Origin: Escherichia coli
Lineage (GTDB): Bacteria; Pseudomonadota; Gammaproteobacteria; Enterobacterales; Enterobacteriaceae
Reading direction: 5' to 3' (one strand)
Length of the DNA: 64,000 nt
Assembly (NCBI RefSeq): GCF_024223415.1
Contig: NZ_CP100500.1
The position numbers were made by a program, and so were the translations under genes. Shown here piece after piece: positions 1,775-37,580 of the stretch (position 1 is its first letter; each line of letters starts with the position of its first letter). The notes below the pieces were generated by a model, which was given only the letters and a program-made list of their open reading frames with translations, made no database searches and was not told the DNA's origin.

Positions 1775-2551
1775 ATGCTGACACCGGCACAGGCTCATTT
1801 CCAGCACGTGATGGCTTTACGGGCAGGAACGGCAGCAGAAAACGAGGATATCGTGGCCCGCACGGCTCATGAGCAGGTCCTTCACCGTCTGCGCCTGGCA
1901 CAGCAACGCATAAAGGGCGTCCAGGCAAAAGCGGCAAAGGCCGCGCTCAAGCGTGAAATGCTGCCGGGTTTTGCAGGCTGGATAGACGGCACGCTGGAAG
2001 CCGACGGCGGACAGCAGGATGAGGTGATAGCCACACTCATGGTGTGGGCCGTGGACTGTGGCGACCTGGCGCTTGCACTGCGCATCGGGGATTATGTGGT
2101 TCGCCACAACCTCACGATGCCTGACAACTTCGGGCGTACGGCAGCCACGGTACTGACCGAGGAAATCTGCAACCCTGTTCTGACACAGGCCGGAACGGAT
2201 GCACACGCCGATTTGTCCGGCTACATCGAACCGCTGGACACCCTCTGGCAAATTGTCGCGAACCGGGACATGCCCGATGAGGTCCGCGCCAAGCTGTGCA
2301 AGGCATGCGCCTTTGCCCGTCGTGGCCTGACCGATGCCGACAGCATGGCGGTGAGTCTGAAGCTGTTCCGTGAGGCAATGCACCTTAACCCGAATGCGGG
2401 GGTAAAACGTGAGATTGCCACGCTTTCACGGGCCCTGAAAAAGGCCGGACAGGATGAAGCCGCTGCCGCACAGGAGCCTGCGGCACAGAAAGATACAACC
2501 AGAGAACAGACCACGACGCCGAAGGCGAAAGCGAAGGCGAAACGTGGTTAA
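1775..2551 (+). CDS. Terminase small/endonuclease subunit (P2 gpM-like)
   Basis: 258-aa ORF directly after capsid gene; Lys/Ala-rich basic C-terminus. Confidence 0.55.
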   Translation: MLTPAQAHFQHVMALRAGTAAENEDIVARTAHEQVLHRLRLAQQRIKGVQAKAAKAALKREMLPGFAGWIDGTLEADGGQQDEVIATLMVWAVDCGDLALALRIGDYVVRHNLTMPDNFGRTAATVLTEEICNPVLTQAGTDAHADLSGYIEPLDTLWQIVANRDMPDEVRAKLCKACAFARRGLTDADSMAVSLKLFREAMHLNPNAGVKREIATLSRALKKAGQDEAAAAQEPAAQKDTTREQTTTPKAKAKAKRG

Positions 2552-2569
2552 CGGCTGACCCCGTCAGAA

Positions 2570-2639
2570 GGCGGCGTGCCGGGCGTTCCGGTTACGGTTT
2601 TCCGTTCCCCTTACACCCGGCACCCACCGCCTTTTTTTT
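2570..2639 (+). terminator. Candidate hairpin plus T9 tract between gpM-like and gpL-like genes (attenuator or terminator)
   Basis: Imperfect inverted repeat ggcggcgtgccggg / ccggcacccaccgcc followed by ttttttttt at 2632-2639. Confidence 0.25.
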
Positions 2640-2654
2640 CTGAAGGAGCGATTT

Positions 2655-3149
2655 ATGAGCATGGTCGCAAGACCGGAAGCCGCCCCTGCACGGGACGATA
2701 TCCCCGACACCGACGACGGCGACGCCACCATCACCGCCGGGGCATTCTGGCCGGAGATTGTGCTGCGGGAGCTGCGCCTTGCAGTACGCCTGCCGGGCCG
2801 CATCACCTCCACACGTCTGGCGCACGTTGCCACGGGAGCCGTGGCTCACGTCACGCGGGAGCTGGAAGAGTGGCAGAAGACGCAGTCTGCCGCAGGGTTC
2901 AGCATCCTCGCAGAAGTGCCTGCCGCCACCATCAACGGTGAGAGCGTCAACGTATGGCATTACCGCAACGCCGTCTACAGCGCCACCCGCGCCCTGATTC
3001 TGGAACGCTGGCGGGATGTGGACACCACTGATAAAGGGAACCGCCGGGCTGACGCACTGGATGAGCAGATGGAAGACTTATGGCGCGATGTGCGCTGGTC
3101 CGTGGCAGATATTCTGGGTCGCCCCCGTCTTTTTGCGGAGCTGGTGTGA
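2655..3149 (+). CDS. Head completion/stabilisation protein (P2 gpL-like)
   Basis: 164-aa ORF; position after terminase small subunit; stop overlaps next start (TGATG). Confidence 0.55.
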   Translation: MSMVARPEAAPARDDIPDTDDGDATITAGAFWPEIVLRELRLAVRLPGRITSTRLAHVATGAVAHVTRELEEWQKTQSAAGFSILAEVPAATINGESVNVWHYRNAVYSATRALILERWRDVDTTDKGNRRADALDEQMEDLWRDVRWSVADILGRPRLFAELV

Positions 3150-3346
3150 TGAAAGTGAGGGCACTCCAGGGGGATACCGTCGATTTACTCTGTTTCCGGC
3201 ACTACGGCACCACGCAGGGGGTGACCGCACAGGTACTTGATGCCAATCCCGGGCTCTGCCGCCAGGTAATTCTGGAAGCGGGACAGGAGGTGGAGATGCC
3301 GGAGCCGGAAAAGAAACAGCAACGCGAAAAGGTAAAGCTATGGTGA
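3149..3346 (+). CDS. Tail protein X (P2 gpX-like, LysM-like)
   Basis: 65-aa ORF starting MKVRALQGDTVDLLCFRHYG at ATG 3149, overlapping previous stop. Confidence 0.5.
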   Translation: MKVRALQGDTVDLLCFRHYGTTQGVTAQVLDANPGLCRQVILEAGQEVEMPEPEKKQQREKVKLW

Positions 3347-3630
3347 CGGGATTTTTTCAGCGCGTCAGTGACTGGATCACCTTCTGGGCGTCAGTGACGG
3401 CAACAACCATTGGTGTTATGACCATCAGCGAAAAAATTGCGCTGGCCGGGCTGCTTCTGGGGTCACTTTCCGCCATCCATGCCTGGTGCCACCGCAGGCG
3501 TACGGAGCAGGCAATGAAGCGCCGCAATGACCTTATCGCCCGCATCCTGGCACGTTCAGAAAACCGCGAGCTTCACGACGGTGAGAGACGGGCACTGGAC
3601 AGCGTGAGACAGGACGGAGAAGAGCGGTGA
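3340..3630 (+). CDS. Holin, two predicted transmembrane helices
   Basis: 96 aa with two hydrophobic stretches (WITFWASVTATTIGVMTI, IALAGLLLGSLSAIHAW) and charged C-tail; directly upstream of endolysin. Confidence 0.5.
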   Translation: MVTGFFQRVSDWITFWASVTATTIGVMTISEKIALAGLLLGSLSAIHAWCHRRRTEQAMKRRNDLIARILARSENRELHDGERRALDSVRQDGEER

Positions 3631-4172
3631 AACTGCCGGTAAAACGTTATGCGGTGGCGGCCATTGTGGCGCTGGGCGTCTCCATGGCACCCGGTGAACT
3701 GAGAACCTCACGGGAAGCACAGATAAAAATCGCCACCCGGGAAGAGTGCCGGGCGACACCGTACCGTGATATTGCAGGAGTAATGACCGTGGGATGTGGT
3801 TCAACAGGGGGCGTGGAGAACCGGGTTTACGGAGAAAAGGAGGTGGCCCGCCGCTGGGTGAATGACCTGCGGCACGCGGAAAACTGTATCAACCAGAACT
3901 TCAGCGGTGCCGCCATGCCCCAGTCCGCCTTTGAGGCGATGACCGACGCGGCGTTCAACGTCGGCTGTACCGGCCTGATGTGGTACCGGGACAGGAGCGG
4001 CAACCGGCAGCGCACCACCATCTGGAAGCACGCACAGGCGCACCGCTGGGTGGCGATGTGCGGGAGACTGACCGATTTTGTCAACAGTGGCGGACGCCGC
4101 TCACAGGGGCTGGTTAACCGCCGGGAGGAGTTCAGACAGTGGTGTCTTCGCGACACGGGAGGCAGCACATGA
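3627..4172 (+). CDS. SAR-type endolysin (T4/P1 Lyz-like lysozyme with N-terminal signal-anchor)
   Basis: N-terminal weakly hydrophobic Ala/Gly-rich segment MKLPVKRYAVAAIVALGVSMAPG followed by lysozyme-like motifs (EEC..TPYRD...CINQNF...AFNVGC...DFVNSGG); resembles P1 Lyz rather than P2 gpK. Confidence 0.65.
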   Translation: MKLPVKRYAVAAIVALGVSMAPGELRTSREAQIKIATREECRATPYRDIAGVMTVGCGSTGGVENRVYGEKEVARRWVNDLRHAENCINQNFSGAAMPQSAFEAMTDAAFNVGCTGLMWYRDRSGNRQRTTIWKHAQAHRWVAMCGRLTDFVNSGGRRSQGLVNRREEFRQWCLRDTGGST

Positions 4173-4576
4173 GACCGGTTTACGCCGTGATTGTTGCCCT
4201 CATGGTGACCACCCTGACGGCGGCGGCCATGTGGCAGTCATACCGGCTGGGGCGTGCCGGTGAGGCACGTGACGCCGCAGAGCAGCAGCTGGGCGAATAC
4301 AGCCGGGCGCTGCGTGAGTCCTCCGCCGTTATCAGCGATGCCTCCGCCGTACTGCATGAGGTGATGACGCAGCGACAGAAAAGGGCACAGGAAGGAGAAG
4401 TCAGACGTGAACAGCTTCGCGAAATTGCTGCGACGGATGAGTGCGCCGGCACTCTTCCTGACCACCGTTTTACTGACCGGCTGCGCGAACACACGGAACG
4501 CGCCACTGCCCGCGCCCTCCTTCCGGTTCATTCCGGCGGGACTGACGACGGGAACACGGCCCCCGCCCTTCCCTGA
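4169..4576 (+). CDS. i-spanin (Rz/LysB-like)
   Basis: ATG at 4169 with GGGAGG upstream; N-terminal TM helix then charged coiled-coil-like region; contains embedded out-of-frame lipoprotein ORF. Confidence 0.5.
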   Translation: MRPVYAVIVALMVTTLTAAAMWQSYRLGRAGEARDAAEQQLGEYSRALRESSAVISDASAVLHEVMTQRQKRAQEGEVRREQLREIAATDECAGTLPDHRFTDRLREHTERATARALLPVHSGGTDDGNTAPALP

Positions 4577-4721
4577 ACACCCCACCTGGGGAAATATCGG
4601 GATATGGAGCGACAGCCTCCTGGATGCACTGGAAACCTGCAACGCAGACAAACGGGCCATTGAGGCGATGGAGCGCCGGAGACTCAACCGACAGAACGGA
4701 GAGGCGCATGCTGAAAAGTAA
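4407..4721 (+). CDS. o-spanin lipoprotein (Rz1/LysC-like), starts inside i-spanin in another frame
   Basis: GTG 4407 preceded by AGGAG; lipobox LLTGC; Pro-rich mature part; overlaps i-spanin 3' end and tail completion gene start. Confidence 0.5.
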   Translation: MNSFAKLLRRMSAPALFLTTVLLTGCANTRNAPLPAPSFRFIPAGLTTGTRPPPFPEHPTWGNIGIWSDSLLDALETCNADKRAIEAMERRRLNRQNGEAHAEK

Positions 4722-5172
4722 ATCCCTGAGCACACACATGAGTACAGCGTGCCGGTGGTGCAGGGCCAACCCGGAAAAGTTCACCGTGTTCATTGAACGT
4801 GGCGGGATAGAGACCACCGGCGAGACGCCGACGTTCGTGTACAACTACCGGCTGGTGATGTTCGTGATGGACTACACGGGCGATCTGGACAACCTGACGC
4901 TTCCACTGATTGTCTGGCTGGCAGAGAACCAGCCGCAGTTGCTGCTTAATCCTGAGCGCAACAACGATATTCAGTTCACGGCGGCCATTAACGACGACGA
5001 CAGCGCGGACGTGCTGTTTGAGCTGCCGTTACGTGAACGCGTGCGCGTCACCCGCAGGGATGACGGCACCCTCATGACAGAACATCTACCGGAGCCGAAA
5101 TCACGCATCCCGCAGGACGGCGACTGGTCACACATTCTGGAGGATGTGACGTGGAACATTGTCACCGGATAA
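4708..5172 (+). CDS. Tail completion protein (P2 gpR-like)
   Basis: ATG 4708 with GGAGAGG upstream; 154 aa; position before gpS-like gene. Confidence 0.5.
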   Translation: MLKSKSLSTHMSTACRWCRANPEKFTVFIERGGIETTGETPTFVYNYRLVMFVMDYTGDLDNLTLPLIVWLAENQPQLLLNPERNNDIQFTAAINDDDSADVLFELPLRERVRVTRRDDGTLMTEHLPEPKSRIPQDGDWSHILEDVTWNIVTG

Positions 5173-5187
5173 CACGCGGAGAATGTT

Positions 5188-5844
5188 ATGGGGAAACTGA
5201 GATACCGTAACCTCGTTCCCGCTGAAGGAATGAGTAACATGTTTGTCAATATCCGGCTGGCAACCAGCCCGCAGGCAGTGAAGCGCATTGCCGCGCATGT
5301 GGGTAAGGAGCTGCGGCGCGTGAACCAGAGCCGGATGCGCGCCCAGAAAGCGCCGGACGGTTCGGTGTGGACACGCCGTAAACGCCGTATATCACGCCTT
5401 CAGGAGCGCATCAGCTTTATCTGGCAAAACCAGAACCGCACCCTGAAAAACTGGCATCACGGTTCAGGAAAATACGGCCAGACCATCACCGGCTGGGATG
5501 AAGACCGGAGCGGCATACGTACCTTTTACCGGAGTGATATCCTCCGTTTCCTTGAAATCAGGACACGCCGCATCAACCGTGACACCACAAAAACGGTGCC
5601 GATGTTTGCGAAGCTGCGCACGGCCCGTTATCTGAAAGTGAAGGCGGACGCATCAGGTGTGACGGTGGGCTACAGCGGCGTGGCGGCACGCATTGCCCGC
5701 GTTCACCAGTTCGGGGAGCGCGACCGGGTGGCCGCAGGGATGTATACGGATTATCCGGCCCGTGAACTTCTTGGAATAACACCGGCAGATGAACGACTTA
5801 TTCAGCGTATCATTATGGACAATATCGCGAGGGCTGTGGCATGA
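5188..5844 (+). CDS. Tail completion / virion morphogenesis protein (P2 gpS-like)
   Basis: 218-aa ORF with RBS; gene order R-S-V-W. Confidence 0.5.
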   Translation: MGKLRYRNLVPAEGMSNMFVNIRLATSPQAVKRIAAHVGKELRRVNQSRMRAQKAPDGSVWTRRKRRISRLQERISFIWQNQNRTLKNWHHGSGKYGQTITGWDEDRSGIRTFYRSDILRFLEIRTRRINRDTTKTVPMFAKLRTARYLKVKADASGVTVGYSGVAARIARVHQFGERDRVAAGMYTDYPARELLGITPADERLIQRIIMDNIARAVA

Positions 5845-18869: not shown

Positions 18870-18980
18870 GAACAATAATCAGGTTGAGAGGACATCATAA
18901 GGCAAGTAGATTAACGGCAGATACTTTCCCGCAACCACGGGCAAGTATTTAATTATCCATGATGAAATATGACCTAAATT

Positions 18981-19014
18981 GTTTTTTGCCCGCCGGAAAG
19001 CGGGCATTTTTTTA
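18981..19014 (+). terminator. Intrinsic terminator, candidate prophage attR core
   Basis: gcccgc cggaaa gcgggc hairpin flanked by T runs on both sides; same element recurs 7 more times downstream. Confidence 0.6.
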
Positions 19015-19227
19015 TTCTTTTGTGGTTATGGGGTCATCAGGAACCACGTGCAGATTATATTTTTGTTTTTTTGGCGTTCCTCCGGCAGCAACGAGTTCAT
19101 CAATAAGACACTGACACGCCTGAACATCCCGGGCATGTCTTAGTTTCACCTTTATTGATTTAACCTTATCCTCACCGGAGGAGAAATGCAGTTCAATCTC
19201 AATATCGTTTCTTCGGAACAATCTCAT
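19012..19227 (-). CDS. Hypothetical small protein (71 aa) in module M
   Basis: ATG at 19227 preceded by AGGGGG; intact only in this copy, truncated or degenerate in the other two M copies. Confidence 0.25.
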   Translation of the reverse strand: MRLFRRNDIEIELHFSSGEDKVKSIKVKLRHARDVQACQCLIDELVAAGGTPKKQKYNLHVVPDDPITTKE

Positions 19228-19398
19228 ACGCCCCCTGAATATATCAGAAATACTAGTATCGAAAAATGAGAAAACAGTTAGACAGGAGAAACATATTAAC
19301 ACAAATCATTTATACCTATAGATGAAATTATAATTTCATTCATGAATATGATAGATAACTATATTGTGAACAAAATGAAAAATGGCTAAATTAAAAAT

Positions 19399-19478
19399 GG
19401 GCATGGAGGAATGCCCGGTTATCAATATAATGTGACGTAGATCATTGTTTTGCCCGCCGGAGAGCGGGCATTTTTTTT
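19399..19478 (+). ncRNA. Candidate small RNA S1
   Basis: Promoter-like TTGTGA(19364)-N17-TAAATT(19387), about 80-nt unit with internal hairpin gggcatggaggaatgccc, ends in intrinsic terminator. Confidence 0.35.
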
Positions 19479-19678
19479 GCGCCTGCCATCGAGGCGCCTT
19501 CCCTGGCGCACACAAAGCAGCCCTGATTTTCCATGAAAACTTCAGGGTTGAGCTGCGGGCACAAAGTGAGTAGATTAGCTACGGGTACCTCCCCCTGACA
19601 ACAGGAAGGGTGTCCATTATCCATGATATACAAACGAAAAGTCTTGTTTTTTGCCCGCCGAAGCGCGGGCATTTTTTT
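19479..19678 (+). ncRNA. Candidate structured RNA U1 (about 200 nt)
   Basis: Bounded by two terminators; internal hairpins gcgcct..aggcgc, ccctga..tcaggg, ccttcc..ggaagg; 4 copies in window. Confidence 0.3.
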
Positions 19679-19723
19679 ATGCATCAGACAAGATACAGCC
19701 CACCCCAACTGACACCTGAAATA

Positions 19724-19752
19724 TTGCCGCAACAAAAAGAAACAGTTAAATT
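19724..19752 (+). promoter_or_regulatory. Sigma70-like promoter for hok1 transcript
   Basis: TTGCCG-N17-TAAATT, about 145 nt upstream of hok1 ATG. Confidence 0.4.
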
Positions 19753-19804
19753 ACGCGCGGGTGCCTTTCGGCTGATGGCCGGAGGGAAAACCTGAAGGCC
19801 GGAT

Positions 19805-20038
19805 GTGGAAAGGCCCCGGAAAACATTTCTGTTTAACCGAGGCCCTAACCGCATTACCTTGACAAGTGAAAGGTTAGCGCCTCTCCGGAAAAGGAGCAAG
19901 TGCTATGTCGCAAAAATCGCTTACGGCCATCACGTTCTGCGTGACGGCAATCCTCATCATCTGGATATTGCACGGTTCGCTGTGCGAAATACGGATGAGC
20001 TTCTGGGGAGCGGAGTTTGCGGCGTTCTTACAATGTAA
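19805..20038 (+). CDS. mok-like overlapping reading frame
   Basis: 77-codon frame overlapping hok1 in a different frame, as in hok/mok loci. Confidence 0.3.
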   Translation: MERPRKTFLFNRGPNRITLTSERLAPLRKRSKCYVAKIAYGHHVLRDGNPHHLDIARFAVRNTDELLGSGVCGVLTM

Positions 20039-20045
20039 GAAGTAA
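19905..20045 (+). CDS. Hok/Gef-family type I toxin (46 aa)
   Basis: MSQKSLTAITFCVTAILIIWILHGSLCEIRMSFWGAEFAAFLQCKK: TM helix plus SLCEI..AAFL.CK signature; AAGGAG 8 nt upstream. Confidence 0.6.
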   Translation: MSQKSLTAITFCVTAILIIWILHGSLCEIRMSFWGAEFAAFLQCKK

Positions 20046-20133
20046 GGAAACCGCGACGGGGGAGCAATCCCCCGTCAATCGGTTGCCAGGGTAAGGTCGA
20101 TAAGGCACCCTATCTCACAGACATGAACAAACA

Positions 20134-20167
20134 AACCCGCAGCATAAAAACTGCGGGTTTTCTTTTT
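20134..20167 (+). terminator. Intrinsic terminator after hok1
   Basis: cccgcag cataaaaa ctgcggg followed by ttttcttttt. Confidence 0.5.
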
Positions 20168-20571
20168 GGTGTCCTCACCGACTTGAAACAGTGATCAGAC
20201 TATAAGACAAAGCCCGCAATGTTGCGGGCTTACTCTACCTCTCGAAAATGTGGTCACTGCGTGGACATACGCTGATACAAATCCTTTATATCAATAAATT
20301 AAATCTTTGTTTTTTTCATCAACAATGATTTAACCTTATCCTCACCGGAGGAGAAATGCAGTTCAATCTCAATATCGTTTCTGTGGAACAGCCTCATAAG
20401 ACAACCTCCTGAATTCATCAGAAACACAGTCAACTGAAAACCAGAAAGCAGACAAACAGTGGACACACATTAATACAAATCATTTATACCTATAGATGAA
20501 ATTGCAGTTTCATCTATAACATGACAGGTAACAATATTGTGAAAAAACTCAAAACTCGTTAGATTAAAGAC

Positions 20572-20651
20572 GGACAGAGCAATGCTACTTTATCAATAAC
20601 ATGTAACCTGTACTTCCTTATTTTGCCCGCCGAAGCACGGGCATTTTTTTT
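20572..20651 (+). ncRNA. Candidate small RNA S2
   Basis: TTGTGA(20537)-N17-TAGATT(20560), terminator at 20625-20651; central region differs from S1. Confidence 0.3.
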
Positions 20652-20849
20652 GCGCCTGCCATCGAGGCGCCTTCCCTGGCGCACACAAAGCAGCCCTGAT
20701 TTTCCATGAAAACTTCAGGGTTGAGCCAAAAGCACAAAGACAGTAGATTAACCACGGGTGCCTTCCACCTGACAACAGGAAGGGTGTCCAGTATCAATGA
20801 CAGACAACTCACATTGCTGTTTTGCCCGCCGGAAAGCGGGCATTTTTTT
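20652..20849 (+). ncRNA. Candidate structured RNA U2
   Basis: Copy of U unit ending in terminator 20821-20849. Confidence 0.3.
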
Positions 20850-21219
20850 ATTCTTTTGTGGTTATTGGGTCATCAGGAACAACATGCAGATTATGCTTTG
20901 ATTTTTTTGGTGTTATTACAGCAGCAACGAGTTTATTAATAAGACACTGACATGCCTGAACATCCCTGACATATCATAATATCACTTTATTTTTTTAGCT
21001 TGTCCTTTCTGGAGCAGAAATATCTCAACATCGTTTCTGTGGAACAACCTCATTTGCCCTTGAATGTATCATAAATATCAGCATCGGAAAACCAACAGCA
21101 ATACAGAAGAAACATGTTAATGCAAATCACTTATACCTATAGATGAAATTACAGTTTTGTTCATAAATATGATAAGTAACTATATTGTGAATAAAATGAA
21201 AACTAGCTAAATTAAACGT

Positions 21220-21300
21220 GGGCATGGTGGAATGCCTCGTAATCAATAATACATGATCCGTACTTCCTTGTTTTGCCCGCCGGAAAGCGGGCATTTTTTT
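21220..21300 (+). ncRNA. Candidate small RNA S3
   Basis: TTGTGA(21185)-N17-TAAATT(21208), hairpin gggcatggtggaatgcc, terminator to 21300. Confidence 0.3.
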
Positions 21301-21497
21301 GGCGGTTACCATCGCCTCACCTTCCTGGTTCACATGAAGCAACCCTGATTTTCCATGAAAACTTCAGGGTTGAGACAAAAGCACAAAGACAGTAGATTAA
21401 CCACGGGTACCTTCCACCTGACAACAGGAAGGCTGTCCAGTATCAATGACAGACAACTCACATTGCTGTTTTGCCCGCCGGAAAGCGGGCTTTTTTT
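21301..21497 (+). ncRNA. Candidate structured RNA U3
   Basis: Copy of U unit, terminator 21469-21497. Confidence 0.3.
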
Positions 21498-21698
21498 GGC
21501 AGTTATCATAGCCGCACCTTCCTGGCACATATGAAGCAACCCTGATTTTCCATGAAAACTTCAGGGTTGAGACAAAAGCACAAAAACAGTAGATTAACCA
21601 CGGGTGCCTGCCACCTGACAACAGGAAGGGTGTCCATTATCCATGATATACAAACGAAAAGTCTTGTCTTTTGCCCGCCAAAGCGCGGGCATTTTTTT
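21498..21698 (+). ncRNA. Candidate structured RNA U4 (hok-associated subtype)
   Basis: Copy of U unit with the same 3' end as U1, terminator 21671-21698. Confidence 0.3.
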
Positions 21699-21909
21699 AT
21701 GCATCAGACAAGATACAGCCCACCCCAACTGACACCTGAAATATTGCCGCAACAAAAAGAAACGGGTGCCTTTCGGCTGATGGCCGGAGGGAAAACCTGA
21801 AGGCCGGATGTGGAAAGGCCCCGGAAAACATCTGTGTTTAACCGAGGCCTGACCCTTCCTACCGTGACAAGTGGAAGGTTAGCGCCTCTTTGTAAAAGGA
21901 GCAAGCGCT

Positions 21910-22050
21910 ATACCGCAAAAAACGATTATTGTTGGCATTTTATGCCTGACAATAACCCTGGTCATCTGGATGGTCCACGATTCGTTATGTGAATTCAGCT
22001 TTGATATCTGGGGAGCGCGTTTTGCGGCGTTCTTGCAGTGTAAACCGTAA
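21910..22050 (+). pseudogene. Hok-family toxin remnant: start codon ATA, promoter -10 deleted
   Basis: Frame encodes PQKTIIVGILCLTITLVIWMVHDSLCEFSFDIWGARFAAFLQCKP after AAGGAG, but first codon is ATA and an in-frame TAG lies 10 codons upstream. Confidence 0.55.
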
Positions 22051-22200
22051 GAAACCGCAGCGGGGGAGAAATTCCCCGCTATCCGGTTGTTGGGGTGGGC
22101 CGATATGGCGCCCTTTCCCTGTAGAGACAAAACAAAAAACCAGATTTGCCCGCCATTGAGAGGGCTTTTTTGTCACCCTCACCAGTGAGGGCATCATCAT

Positions 22201-37492: not shown

Positions 37493-37580
37493 GGTGAGGT
37501 GTCCGAGTGGCTGAAGGAGCACGCCTGGAAAGTGTGTATACGGCAACGTATCGGGGGTTCGAATCCCCCCCTCACCGCCA
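37493..37580 (+). tRNA. serW: tRNA-Ser (anticodon GGA)
   Basis: 88-nt GGTGAGGTGTCCGAGTGGCTGAAGGAGCACGCCTGGAAAGTGTG...GGTTCGAATCCCCCCCTCACCGCCA with long variable arm; downstream of infA as for serW. Confidence 0.93.

Follow-up and report, generated by a model that had tools for sequence, protein, structure and literature searches.

A lysis cassette with a SAR-type endolysin and a putative pinholin among the late genes of a P2-like Escherichia coli prophage

Between the tail genes X and R of a P2-like (Xuanwuvirus-like) prophage of Escherichia coli, we found a set of four genes that probably constitutes a complete and functional lysis cassette of the type known from Haemophilus phage HP1, located in the late operon. 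The window, that is, the whole stretch of DNA that was analysed, comprises 64,000 nt of contig NZ_CP100500.1, and only the right part of the prophage falls inside it. The combination of a pinholin with a SAR endolysin is an already established design, including in the P2-like phage HP1 (PMC7312051), and the cassette is no new departure. Since the same combination has been proven experimentally in this related phage, we consider the cassette real but ordinary, and of little weight for general phage biology.

Gene content and genomic context

The cassette consists of four genes in the list of ORFs of the window, all of them present at the positions that the earlier note on this DNA had assigned to them. 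These genes and the two that border them are the following:

3149..3346, + strand: tail protein X gene, the upstream edge of the cassette, whose stop overlaps the holin start (PF05489 Phage_tail_X, 1.5e-20)
3340..3630, + strand: holin, 96 aa (PHROG 1350 'holin', 7e-23)
3627..4172, + strand: endolysin, 181 aa, T4/P1-Lyz-type muramidase with a GTG start at 3627, beginning MKLPVKRYAVAAIVALGVSMAPG (PF00959, 1.4e-21)
4169..4576, + strand: i-spanin (LysB-like), 135 aa (PHROG 214 'Rz-like spanin', 1.3e-25)
4407..4721, + strand: o-spanin (LysC), 104-aa precursor with a GTG start (Pfam LysC PF23793, 4.6e-13, 49.3 bits with the cut-off at 27)
4708..5172, + strand: tail completion gene R, the downstream edge of the cassette (PF06891, 3.9e-38)

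Stop and start codons overlap at the X/holin (ATGGTGA), holin/endolysin (GTGA) and endolysin/lysB (ATGA) junctions and, given such an overlap at each junction, the four genes look translationally coupled and appear to form one block rather than a collection of chance ORFs. According to profile searches, the neighbours of the cassette are P2-type, with M, L and X upstream and R and S downstream. The list of ORFs of the window contains none between the endolysin gene and lysB, and lysA is absent. An Rfam search of the whole window at the gathering threshold returned a tRNA and IS102 RNA alone, with no match inside the cassette.

The cassette had been proposed to differ from the P2 paradigm. This stands for the holin and the endolysin, which show no similarity to P2 Y and K, but not for the spanins, which are of the P2 overlapped type. 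BLASTP comparisons of the holin, endolysin and spanins with P2 Y, K and LysA detected no similarity. P2 Y is assigned to PF04550, a family with three TMDs, and the description of P2 gpK as a lambda-R-like enzyme proved correct (1AM7 and 3D3D at 4e-44), with no BLASTP similarity between gpK and the window endolysin. The cassette resembles the P2 Y-K-lysA-lysB-lysC region in occupying the same X-R slot, in its overlapped lysB and lysC genes running into R and in the Pfam family of its LysC, whereas P2 has a three-TMD Y, a soluble lambda-R-like K and a lysA gene, none of them homologous to the window cassette. Among complete E. coli genomes the cassette is rare, being present in 25 out of 5,426, against 1,482 out of 5,426 for the P2 Y-K pair.

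Family, fold and catalytic site of the endolysin

The features of the endolysin that are discussed below are located as follows:

3627..3695, + strand: SAR-type segment, residues 1–23, with the basic residues K2, K6 and R7 followed by 16 uncharged residues
3684..3686, + strand: internal ATG (Met20), the PGAP start of the lysozyme in NZ_CP128970
3741..3788, + strand: catalytic triad E39 (3741–3743), D48 (3768–3770) and T54 (3786–3788), E-x8-D-x5-T as read from the sequence

The assignment as a T4/P1-Lyz-like lysozyme, which the earlier note had made dependent on the outcome of a profile search, held up: the endolysin scored 77.6 bits against Pfam Phage_lysozyme PF00959, for a cut-off of 22.3. 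Its closest solved structure is that of P1 Lyz, the prototype SAR endolysin (1XJT and 1XJU), with 7e-36 and 45% identity to 1XJT, while phage 21 R, the other enzyme proposed for alignment, is 27% identical (R21 PDB entry, E 1e-4). The AF2 model of the endolysin (pLDDT 88.9) superposes on active P1 Lyz with a TM score of 0.88 and an rmsd of 2.1 Å, compared with a TM score of 0.59 for the inactive form, and a Foldseek search with this model matched T4 lysozyme entries besides 1XJT. The Pfam, 1XJT and Foldseek matches all identify a GH24/T4-lysozyme-like domain.

The E-x8-D-x5-T triad corresponds to the Glu-x8-Asp/Cys-x5-Thr triad of T4-lysozyme-type SAR endolysins (PMC3556154, PMC9239132), and its spacing equals that of P1 Lyz. 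Two cysteines are found in this region: C41 (3747–3749), the equivalent of P1 C44, lies within the triad span, and C57 (3795–3797) is just downstream of it. E39, C41 and T54 are invariant in the alignment of the endolysin with 35 homologues.

The N-terminal segment and the start codon of the endolysin

In SAR domains, 2–3 basic residues precede a stretch without charges that is weakly hydrophobic and abounds in Ala, Gly, Ser and Thr (PMC9239132); in Mu gp22 this stretch spans roughly 20 aa (PMC9239132). The N-terminus of the endolysin has this composition, with an uncharged stretch after K2, K6 and R7, YAVAAIVALGVSMAPG, in which 8 of the 16 residues are Ala (5), Gly (2) or Ser (1), although at 16 aa the stretch is shorter than the one of Mu gp22. 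It is also less hydrophobic than its counterparts, the best 15-residue Kyte-Doolittle window scoring 1.91 (2.44 in P1 Lyz and 2.20 in R21) and the best 19-residue window 1.44 (2.07 and 2.11, respectively). The sequence features of the SAR-type segment proposed in the earlier note are thus present, and they suggest SAR behaviour, for which the definitive test is whether export depends on Sec and whether the enzyme is tethered to the membrane and then set free by depolarisation or a pinholin (PMC9239132).

A cleavable Sec signal peptide, which would yield a soluble periplasmic lysozyme restrained by other means, as in fOg44 Lys44, seems quite improbable. The shortness of the hydrophobic stretch, reminiscent of an h-region, is in its favour, and cleavage after G17-V18-S19, before M20, would satisfy the -3/-1 rule. 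SignalP also called the homologous N-terminus of HP1 Lys a signal peptide, while experiments indicate that this protein is a SAR endolysin (PMC7312051), so the verdict of such a predictor would not settle the matter. On the other hand, the sole AxA-like site (SMA|P) is directly followed by P22, a residue that all 35 of 35 homologues share, and within class A conservation of the segment is no lower than that of the catalytic domain (77.5% vs 72.5%). The alignment with P1 Lyz extends through part of the SAR segment, which is uncleaved in P1 Lyz, and in the AF2 model the N-terminal helix (residues 10–20, pLDDT 96) is packed as in active P1 Lyz, an agreement that is not independent given that AF2 was trained on P1 Lyz. 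Moreover, in the sister class the presence of a Cys in the segment goes hand in hand with that of the catalytic Cys, which is sensible only if the mature enzyme keeps the segment, and a free secreted muramidase would be expected to cause premature lysis of the host.

Still less credible is the start annotated in RefSeq, where PGAP places the beginning of the lysozyme of NZ_CP128970 at the internal ATG 3684. The resulting 162-aa protein loses the SAR segment and would be a soluble cytoplasmic lysozyme requiring a large-hole holin. ATG is commoner than GTG as a start codon, but no SD-like sequence precedes ATG 3684, whereas an SD-like GGAG stands 7 nt 5' of GTG 3627, which in turn overlaps the holin stop. 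Residues 1–19 are conserved in frame among homologues down to 54% identity, the 181-aa form is called in other annotations (P0001), and wrongly called starts of lysis genes have been documented as a problem (PMC6139136). ATG 3684 is probably a mis-called start, and we read the protein as a 181-aa enzyme that begins with a SAR-type segment.

Cysteine content and regulation of the endolysin

Xu et al. in 2005 reportedly described the thiol-disulfide switch of P1 Lyz, which involves Cys13 and Cys51. In this thiol-disulfide isomerisation, Cys13 of the SAR domain frees the catalytic Cys51 (PMC3556154). The window endolysin contains no Cys in residues 1–38 and has an Asp at position 48; it therefore has neither a SAR Cys nor a disulfide-caged catalytic Cys, and the switch that defines P1 Lyz is missing. 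With no SAR Cys and with Asp in the triad, its restraint cannot depend on the P1 switch and would have to lie in topology or conformation, as in R21. The SAR domain of R21 is likewise devoid of Cys and its triad is E-x8-D-x5-T, a likeness that makes membrane tethering followed by refolding the presumable mode of regulation. To judge from its residues, the endolysin is P1-Lyz-like in sequence but not P1-type in regulation.

Kuty et al. in 2010 are said to have defined a Lyz103 subclass by Cys residues flanking the catalytic Glu on either side and a further Cys in the SAR domain. Caging of this type was rejected for the window endolysin, in which residue 38 is Arg, C41 alone flanks E39, and the SAR segment has no Cys.

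In the close family (35 homologues), the co-variation of these positions is perfect: 13 sequences combine Y8, D48 and C57, and 22 combine C8 and C48 with I, L or M at position 57. A Cys in the SAR segment accordingly accompanies the catalytic Cys in 22 of 22 sequences of the second group and in 0 of 13 of the first. When surveyed at 50% identity, the C41 and C57 combination recurred in lineages that are 24–45% identical to one another, and was in no case accompanied by a SAR Cys. By its residues, the endolysin can be placed in a small, recurrent Cys41+Cys57 subclass. This recurrence suggests that the redox switch may have been swapped repeatedly, by convergence, for a fixed disulfide, so that only membrane tethering would remain as a means of control. 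We also put forward, as a tentative reading that we hold possible rather than probable, that these enzymes form an undescribed subclass of P1-Lyz-like SAR endolysins in which the thiol switch was dismantled as a unit and the new C57 (Thr+3) became the permanent partner of the conserved C41 (Glu+2). From the cysteine co-variation comes a testable idea of how redox control and purely topological control are interchanged in SAR endolysins.

The holin

The two TM helices attributed to the 96-aa protein were recovered both as two hydropathy peaks and as two helices in the AF2 model (residues 2–26 and 29–75, pLDDT 74). By hydropathy, TMD1 covers approximately residues 12–29 and is Thr/Ser-rich and weakly hydrophobic, while TMD2 covers approximately residues 33–50 and carries a G37xxxG41xxxA45 motif; the two are joined by an invariant, tight turn, S30-E31-K32. 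After TMD2 comes a highly charged C-terminal tail of 46 aa, which starts with HRRR. The protein shares with pinholins a small size, two TMDs, a basic C-terminal tail and a gene that adjoins and overlaps that of a SAR-type endolysin, features from which we consider it most likely a pinholin. Its match to the Pfam HP1-holin family PF16080 (8e-4, 19.8 bits) is below the cut-off of 28.8, and this family is a sub-threshold match in 7 of the 9 members of the holin family. In direct hhalign comparisons, it was related to HP1 Hol with 75% probability (E 2.5e-5, over 60 columns) and unrelated to S21-68 (1.4%).

In P1, a SAR endolysin works with a canonical holin. In Mu, it works with a releasin, and a pinholin is not strictly required (PMC9239132). 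Because SAR endolysins also operate with such partners, the pairing observed here is no proof of a pinholin, and the 96-aa protein might instead be a canonical large-hole class II holin that frees the SAR endolysin by destroying the membrane, as the P1 holin does for P1 Lyz. We regard this as unlikely, though by no means negligible. The hydropathy of TMD1 (1.45 over 17 residues on the Kyte-Doolittle scale) exceeds that of the SAR-like TMD1 of S21-68, which stays below 1.0, and both the lack of similarity to S21-68 and the sub-threshold membership of the HP1 holin family would fit a large-hole holin. Against it, the TMD2 of pinholins bears a GxxxGxxxA-like face that the TMD2 described here resembles, and in each of the 16 phage records with a homologue of the holin gene, this homologue was directly upstream of one of the endolysin gene. 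The holin also shows a distant kinship to HP1 Hol, which leaked no beta-galactosidase in a reporter assay (PMC7312051). These points argue for a pinholin, and it is with this function that the protein enters the scheme proposed below.

Two other roles were rejected. The gene begins with ATG-GTG, yet both products would have equal charge, which is at odds with a dual-start antiholin. A Mu-type releasin, considered in view of the long charged cytoplasmic tail, is not supported by a DUF2730 match, and two TMDs are predicted, not one.

The spanins

The i-spanin has an N-terminal TMD (residues 3–22, Kyte-Doolittle peak 2.24) followed by a helical periplasmic domain, and its gene is preceded by an SD sequence, GGAGG, 6 nt upstream. 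LysC has the characteristics of an o-spanin, namely membership of the LysC family and a lipobox, LLTGC (4470–4484), read as LLTG|C with no Asp at +2. After processing, the lipoprotein would have 79 aa, of which 11% are Pro; Ala occupies position +2, and mature position 53 is a second Cys. The GTG start of lysC has an SD sequence, AAGGAG, 9 nt upstream, and the same GTG start is found in the unannotated homologue of phage P88.

The out-of-frame lipoprotein that was seen to run past the stop of the i-spanin gene is indeed there: lysC is read in the +1 frame relative to lysB, has 170 nt in common with it, extends 145 nt past the lysB stop and enters R by 14 nt. The earlier note was mistaken, however, in calling the spanins embedded. 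In an embedded architecture, as in lambda Rz/Rz1, the o-spanin gene would sit wholly inside the i-spanin gene, whereas lysC ends at 4721 and lysB at 4576, which makes the two genes overlapped. Overlapped spanins are the arrangement of P2 LysB/LysC (PMC6139136, PMC3091744), and P2 LysC also matches PF23793 (6e-18), the Pfam family that the two LysC proteins have in common, while the direct BLASTP comparison between them was insignificant (E 0.16). Since both the arrangement and the family of LysC are those of P2, the spanins are not different in kind from their P2 counterparts.

Module exchange and related phages

3330..4387, no strand assigned: exchanged segment, comprising the holin gene, the endolysin gene and the 5' two-thirds of lysB (blastn gap against Xuanwuvirus P88)

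A megablast search of the cassette against the phage collection gave no match, and its relatives emerged with blastn and tblastn. The module exchange that had been suggested for this region was corroborated: similarity to P88 in blastn covers 2533–3329 (75%) and 4388–5154 (72%), with no alignment in between, and the holin-endolysin pair resembles that of Enterobacter phage phiT5282H, to which positions 3081–4120 align at 66%. In comparison with P88, amino acid identity is 78% for X, 71% for R and 42.5% for LysB. The lysB gene is chimeric, its 5' part (4169–4387) being unlike P88 and its 3' part P88-like. The holin-endolysin pair and the 5' part of lysB were gained by recombination, in place of whichever pair held the slot before, and the tail genes, lysC and the 3' part of lysB were retained. 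Exchange of lysis modules among P2-like phages has been reported (PMC3091744), and the locus is a clean natural example of recombination. One of the junctions lies inside lysB, just upstream of the lysC start, a position that leaves the o-spanin linked to the i-spanin portion with which it shares its coding DNA.

The nearest sequenced relatives of the pair are found in phiT5282H (Novemvirus) and in the Klebsiella P2-like prophages Kp4845-1 and ST16-OXA48phi5.4, with 52% identity for the holin and 66–69% for the endolysin; in phiT5282H the values are 52% for the holin and 69% for gp30, the endolysin. These elements also share the gene order between X and lysB and a P2-like late operon. They differ in that the endolysin belongs to the P1 cysteine class (C8, C48 and I57, as checked for phiT5282H), and their L, X and R are further from those of the window than are those of P88.

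HP1 (Peduoviridae, Hpunavirus) belongs to the same phage family, and its pinholin and Sec-dependent SAR endolysin are experimentally supported (PMC7312051). Its cassette has the same order of holin, endolysin and overlapped spanins, with an overlap between hol and lys. The HP1 holin is likewise small and two-helical, ends in a charged tail and lacks a dual start, but it has 78 aa, compared with 96 aa in the window, and the two are only distantly related. HP1 Lys is P1-Lyz-like and 40% identical to the window endolysin (E 1.5e-33), and its N-terminus likewise includes an uncharged segment; it differs in having the SAR Cys and the catalytic Cys of the P1 type where the window endolysin has Y8, D48 and C57. 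The HP1 cassette also follows the tail tube gene, whereas the one described here lies between X and R. With phage 21 (S21-68/R21), the likeness lies in the functional scheme, while the holins are unrelated and the window has no dual-start antiholin.

Proposed lysis mechanism

On these grounds, the following course of events is plausible. The 181-aa lysozyme would be exported by Sec and held restrained at the inner membrane, presumably tethered by its weakly hydrophobic SAR segment. Meanwhile, the 96-aa holin would build up in the membrane, trigger at a set time and depolarise it, most likely through small holes. The SAR segment would then exit the bilayer and refold into the body of the enzyme, as in active P1 Lyz, and the freed muramidase (E39/D48/T54) would degrade the wall. 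Disruption of the outer membrane would come last, carried out by the LysB/LysC complex of an inner-membrane subunit and an outer-membrane lipoprotein.

Annotation of the cassette genes

In RefSeq, the holin and LysB are left as 'hypothetical', and some homologues of the holin are named 'phage tail protein'. PGAP starts lysC at 4530, which yields a 63-aa product and eliminates the lipobox. The RefSeq truncation of the lysozyme and of LysC thus removes exactly the N-terminal signals that define their functions, the SAR segment in the former and the lipobox in the latter.

Cassette layout and module exchange

Between P2-type tail genes lie four overlapping ORFs, and both the coordinates and the peptides that the earlier note had quoted for this lysis cassette match them exactly.

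1775-3346, P2-type M, L and X genes, upstream flank of the cassette
3340-3630, +, 96-aa ORF (holin)
GTG 3627 to 4172, +, 181-aa ORF (endolysin)
4169-4576, +, 135-aa ORF (i-spanin, lysB)
GTG 4407 to 4721, +, 104-aa ORF (o-spanin, lysC), in the +1 frame relative to the 135-aa ORF
4708-5844, P2-type R and S genes, downstream flank

Stop and start codons overlap at each junction (ATGGTGA, GTGA and ATGA), and the lysC ORF shares 14 nt with gene R. The backbone is closest to the Xuanwuvirus P88 (amino acid identity of 76% for L, 78% for X and 71% for R), whereas the holin (52%) and the endolysin (69%) are closest to the Novemvirus phiT5282H; in P88, the same slot is filled by a lambda-S-like holin and an M15 peptidase. 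DNA similarity to P88 extends from 2533 to 3329 and returns from 4388 onward, which bears out the module exchange proposed in the earlier note and delimits the exchanged block to 3330-4387. As the second junction falls inside lysB, 19 nt before the lysC start, the i-spanin is chimeric, its 3' part (the C-terminal third), which shares DNA with lysC, having been kept with the tail genes.

Of 5426 complete E. coli genomes, 25 carry the cassette at 95-100% identity and 1482 carry the P2 Y-K pair. Earlier work on P2-like phages has described lysis modules moving between them by horizontal transfer, and mutually dissimilar sets of holin, endolysin and antiholin (PMC3091744). The design itself is already known from Haemophilus phage HP1, a member of the same family, and sequenced P2-like phages from Enterobacter and Klebsiella carry it as well; similar cassettes were described in work on Klebsiella phages (PMC9902359). 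The observation made earlier is confirmed, and its interpretation is essentially right apart from the spanin type and the prior existence of the design.

A P1-Lyz-like endolysin

The endolysin matches Pfam Phage_lysozyme above threshold (1.4e-21). Among solved structures, P1 Lyz is the closest (1XJT; 7e-36, 45% identity), with a much weaker match to R21 (1e-4), while P2 gpK is lambda-lysozyme-like (1AM7 and 3D3D, 4e-44). BLASTP of the window endolysin against P2 gpK gave no similarity. The proposed contrast between a P1-Lyz-like and a lambda-like enzyme holds. The catalytic triad, taken straight from the DNA, is E39-x8-D48-x5-T54, in agreement with the published definition (PMC3556154, PMC9239132). 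The AlphaFold model (pLDDT 88.9) superposes on active P1 Lyz with the N-terminal helix included (TM 0.88, rmsd 2.1 A), and more poorly on the inactive form (TM 0.59). The catalytic Glu is directly preceded by Arg (residue 38, 3738-3740) in the window protein and its 99% identical database twin, and by Trp, Phe or Tyr in all 33 other aligned homologues.

Whether the N-terminus is a signal-anchor-release (SAR) domain or a cleavable signal peptide was judged from its composition and four indirect arguments. Three basic residues (K2, K6 and R7) precede 16 uncharged ones, of which Ala, Gly and Ser make up half, a composition that fits the published SAR-domain description (PMC9239132); the SAR domains of P1 and R21 are longer and more hydrophobic. 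After the sole AxA-like site, S-M-A, comes a proline, invariant across 35 close homologues, and a proline at +1 prevents cleavage by signal peptidase I. Conservation of the segment in the subclass to which the query belongs (77.5%) is no lower than that of the catalytic domain (72.5%), which is not what a disposable signal peptide would show. Perfect co-variation links a segment Cys to the catalytic Cys in the sister subclass, as in P1 Lyz, which argues that the segment must remain on the mature enzyme. The segment can also be aligned to part of the P1 SAR domain, and its model packs into the fold (pLDDT 96), but AlphaFold has seen P1 Lyz, and this is not independent evidence. Signal-peptide prediction is not decisive here, since SignalP called the N-terminus of HP1 Lys a signal peptide, yet experiments point to a SAR endolysin (PMC7312051).

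Cysteine pattern

Xu et al. 2005 are said to have found the catalytic Cys of P1 Lyz held inactive in a disulfide that a SAR-domain thiol resolves. A published account likewise describes inactivity through a disulfide on this Cys, which is freed by the SAR-domain thiol (PMC3556154). In the window endolysin this switch is absent, since residues 1-38 contain no Cys and the catalytic position is occupied by Asp. The sites concerned are:

3648-3650, +, Y8
3747-3749, +, C41
3768-3770, +, D48
3795-3797, +, C57

Among the 35 close homologues, co-variation is binary and perfect, with Y8/D48/C57 in 13 and C8/C48/[I,L,M]57 in 22, and C41 is invariant across both subclasses. In a wider survey of SAR-like enzymes having C41, taken as representatives at 50% identity, an N-terminal Cys occurs in none of the four with C57 and in 43 of the 44 without it (Fisher's p = 2.6e-5; 2.5e-4 with the query left out). 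The four C41+C57 representatives share only 24-45% identity, and each of the others is less similar to the query than P1 Lyz is; the pattern therefore probably has more than one origin. On the simplest hypothesis, C57 would be a fixed partner for C41, and control would be purely topological, as in R21.

The holin

The 96-aa protein matches the PHROG 1350 'holin' profile (7e-23) and has hydrophobic helices at about 12-29 and 33-50, an invariant Ser-Glu-Lys turn between them and a 46-residue charged tail. Its family is small, comprising 13 database clusters, none with a Pfam assignment and some named 'phage tail protein'. A nine-member profile aligns with the HP1 holin across both helices (hhalign 75%, E 2.5e-5), and seven of the nine members give sub-threshold matches to PF16080, the HP1 holin family. 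In all 16 phage records containing a homologue, it lies directly upstream of an endolysin homologue. HP1 Hol, which is required for lysis, kills cells while beta-galactosidase is retained, and Lys-dependent lysis in HP1 requires Sec (PMC7312051). Together, the HP1 likeness, the constant endolysin adjacency and the HP1 experiments make a pinholin the most likely reading, held with slightly better than even confidence; its main rival is a canonical class II holin. A search for a relation to the phage 21 pinholin S21-68 returned none.

Overlapped spanins

The third ORF encodes an Rz/LysB-like i-spanin whose N-terminus holds a TMD. The product of the fourth scores above threshold for Pfam LysC, to which P2 LysC also belongs, and carries a lipobox (LLTG|C) with Ala at +2 and a mature part containing 11% proline. 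Because lysC starts within lysB and extends 145 nt beyond its stop into R, the pair is 'overlapped', as in P2, the type example, and not 'embedded', as in lambda and as the earlier note had it (PMC6139136, PMC3091744). On this point the cassette keeps to the P2 paradigm.

Start codons and annotation

Beyond its low general interest, the cassette is of value for the cysteine co-variation and for its annotation errors. Automatic annotation is known to miscall starts in lysis genes and to miss o-spanins (PMC6139136). In the RefSeq/PGAP-annotated record of the same cassette (NZ_CP128970), the lysozyme starts at Met20 (ATG 3684; 162 aa), losing the hydrophobic, putative SAR segment, and LysC is called from an ATT at 4530 (63 aa), losing the lipobox. 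We consider both starts wrong. For the lysozyme, GTG 3627 overlaps the holin stop with GGAG 7 nt upstream, no Shine-Dalgarno-like sequence was found upstream of ATG 3684, in-frame conservation of residues 1-19 extends to homologues with as little as 54% identity, and the 181-aa form is also called in databases (P0001). For LysC, AAGGAG lies 9 nt upstream of GTG 4407, and the unannotated P88 LysC starts at the equivalent GTG.

The same record annotates the holin and LysB merely as 'hypothetical'. The o-spanin is unannotated in the reference records used for P88 (2651-2971) and phiT5282H (3275-3589) despite a clear LysC homologue with a lipobox; the sole CDS annotated in the phiT5282H stretch is a 30-aa hypothetical.

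Other features of the window

R matches positions 1-153 and S positions 165-366 of the 367-position profile PHROG 36427 (window 4708-5844), as though some phages carried a fusion of the two; S is 204-218 aa long here, against 150 aa in P2. Between the prophage end (ogr-like gene) and serS, a block of diverged direct repeats (18980-22115) consists of units of about 0.6-1.2 kb that share 66-95% identity. Every unit has a terminator-like hairpin, and the block includes a 197-nt tandem repeat (21269-21653). No Rfam family matched the block, and the corresponding region of strain TUM1886 carries an annotated Hok/Gef family gene. A tRNA at 37493-37577 (+; tRNA-Ser in a related genome) precedes an island differing from TUM1886, where similarity falls to 87-90% and is patchy beyond about 39.7 kb. 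At 49751-49947 (-) there is a match to an IS102 RNA, and the TUM1886 island carries cbtA/yeeU-type toxin-antitoxin and antirestriction genes.
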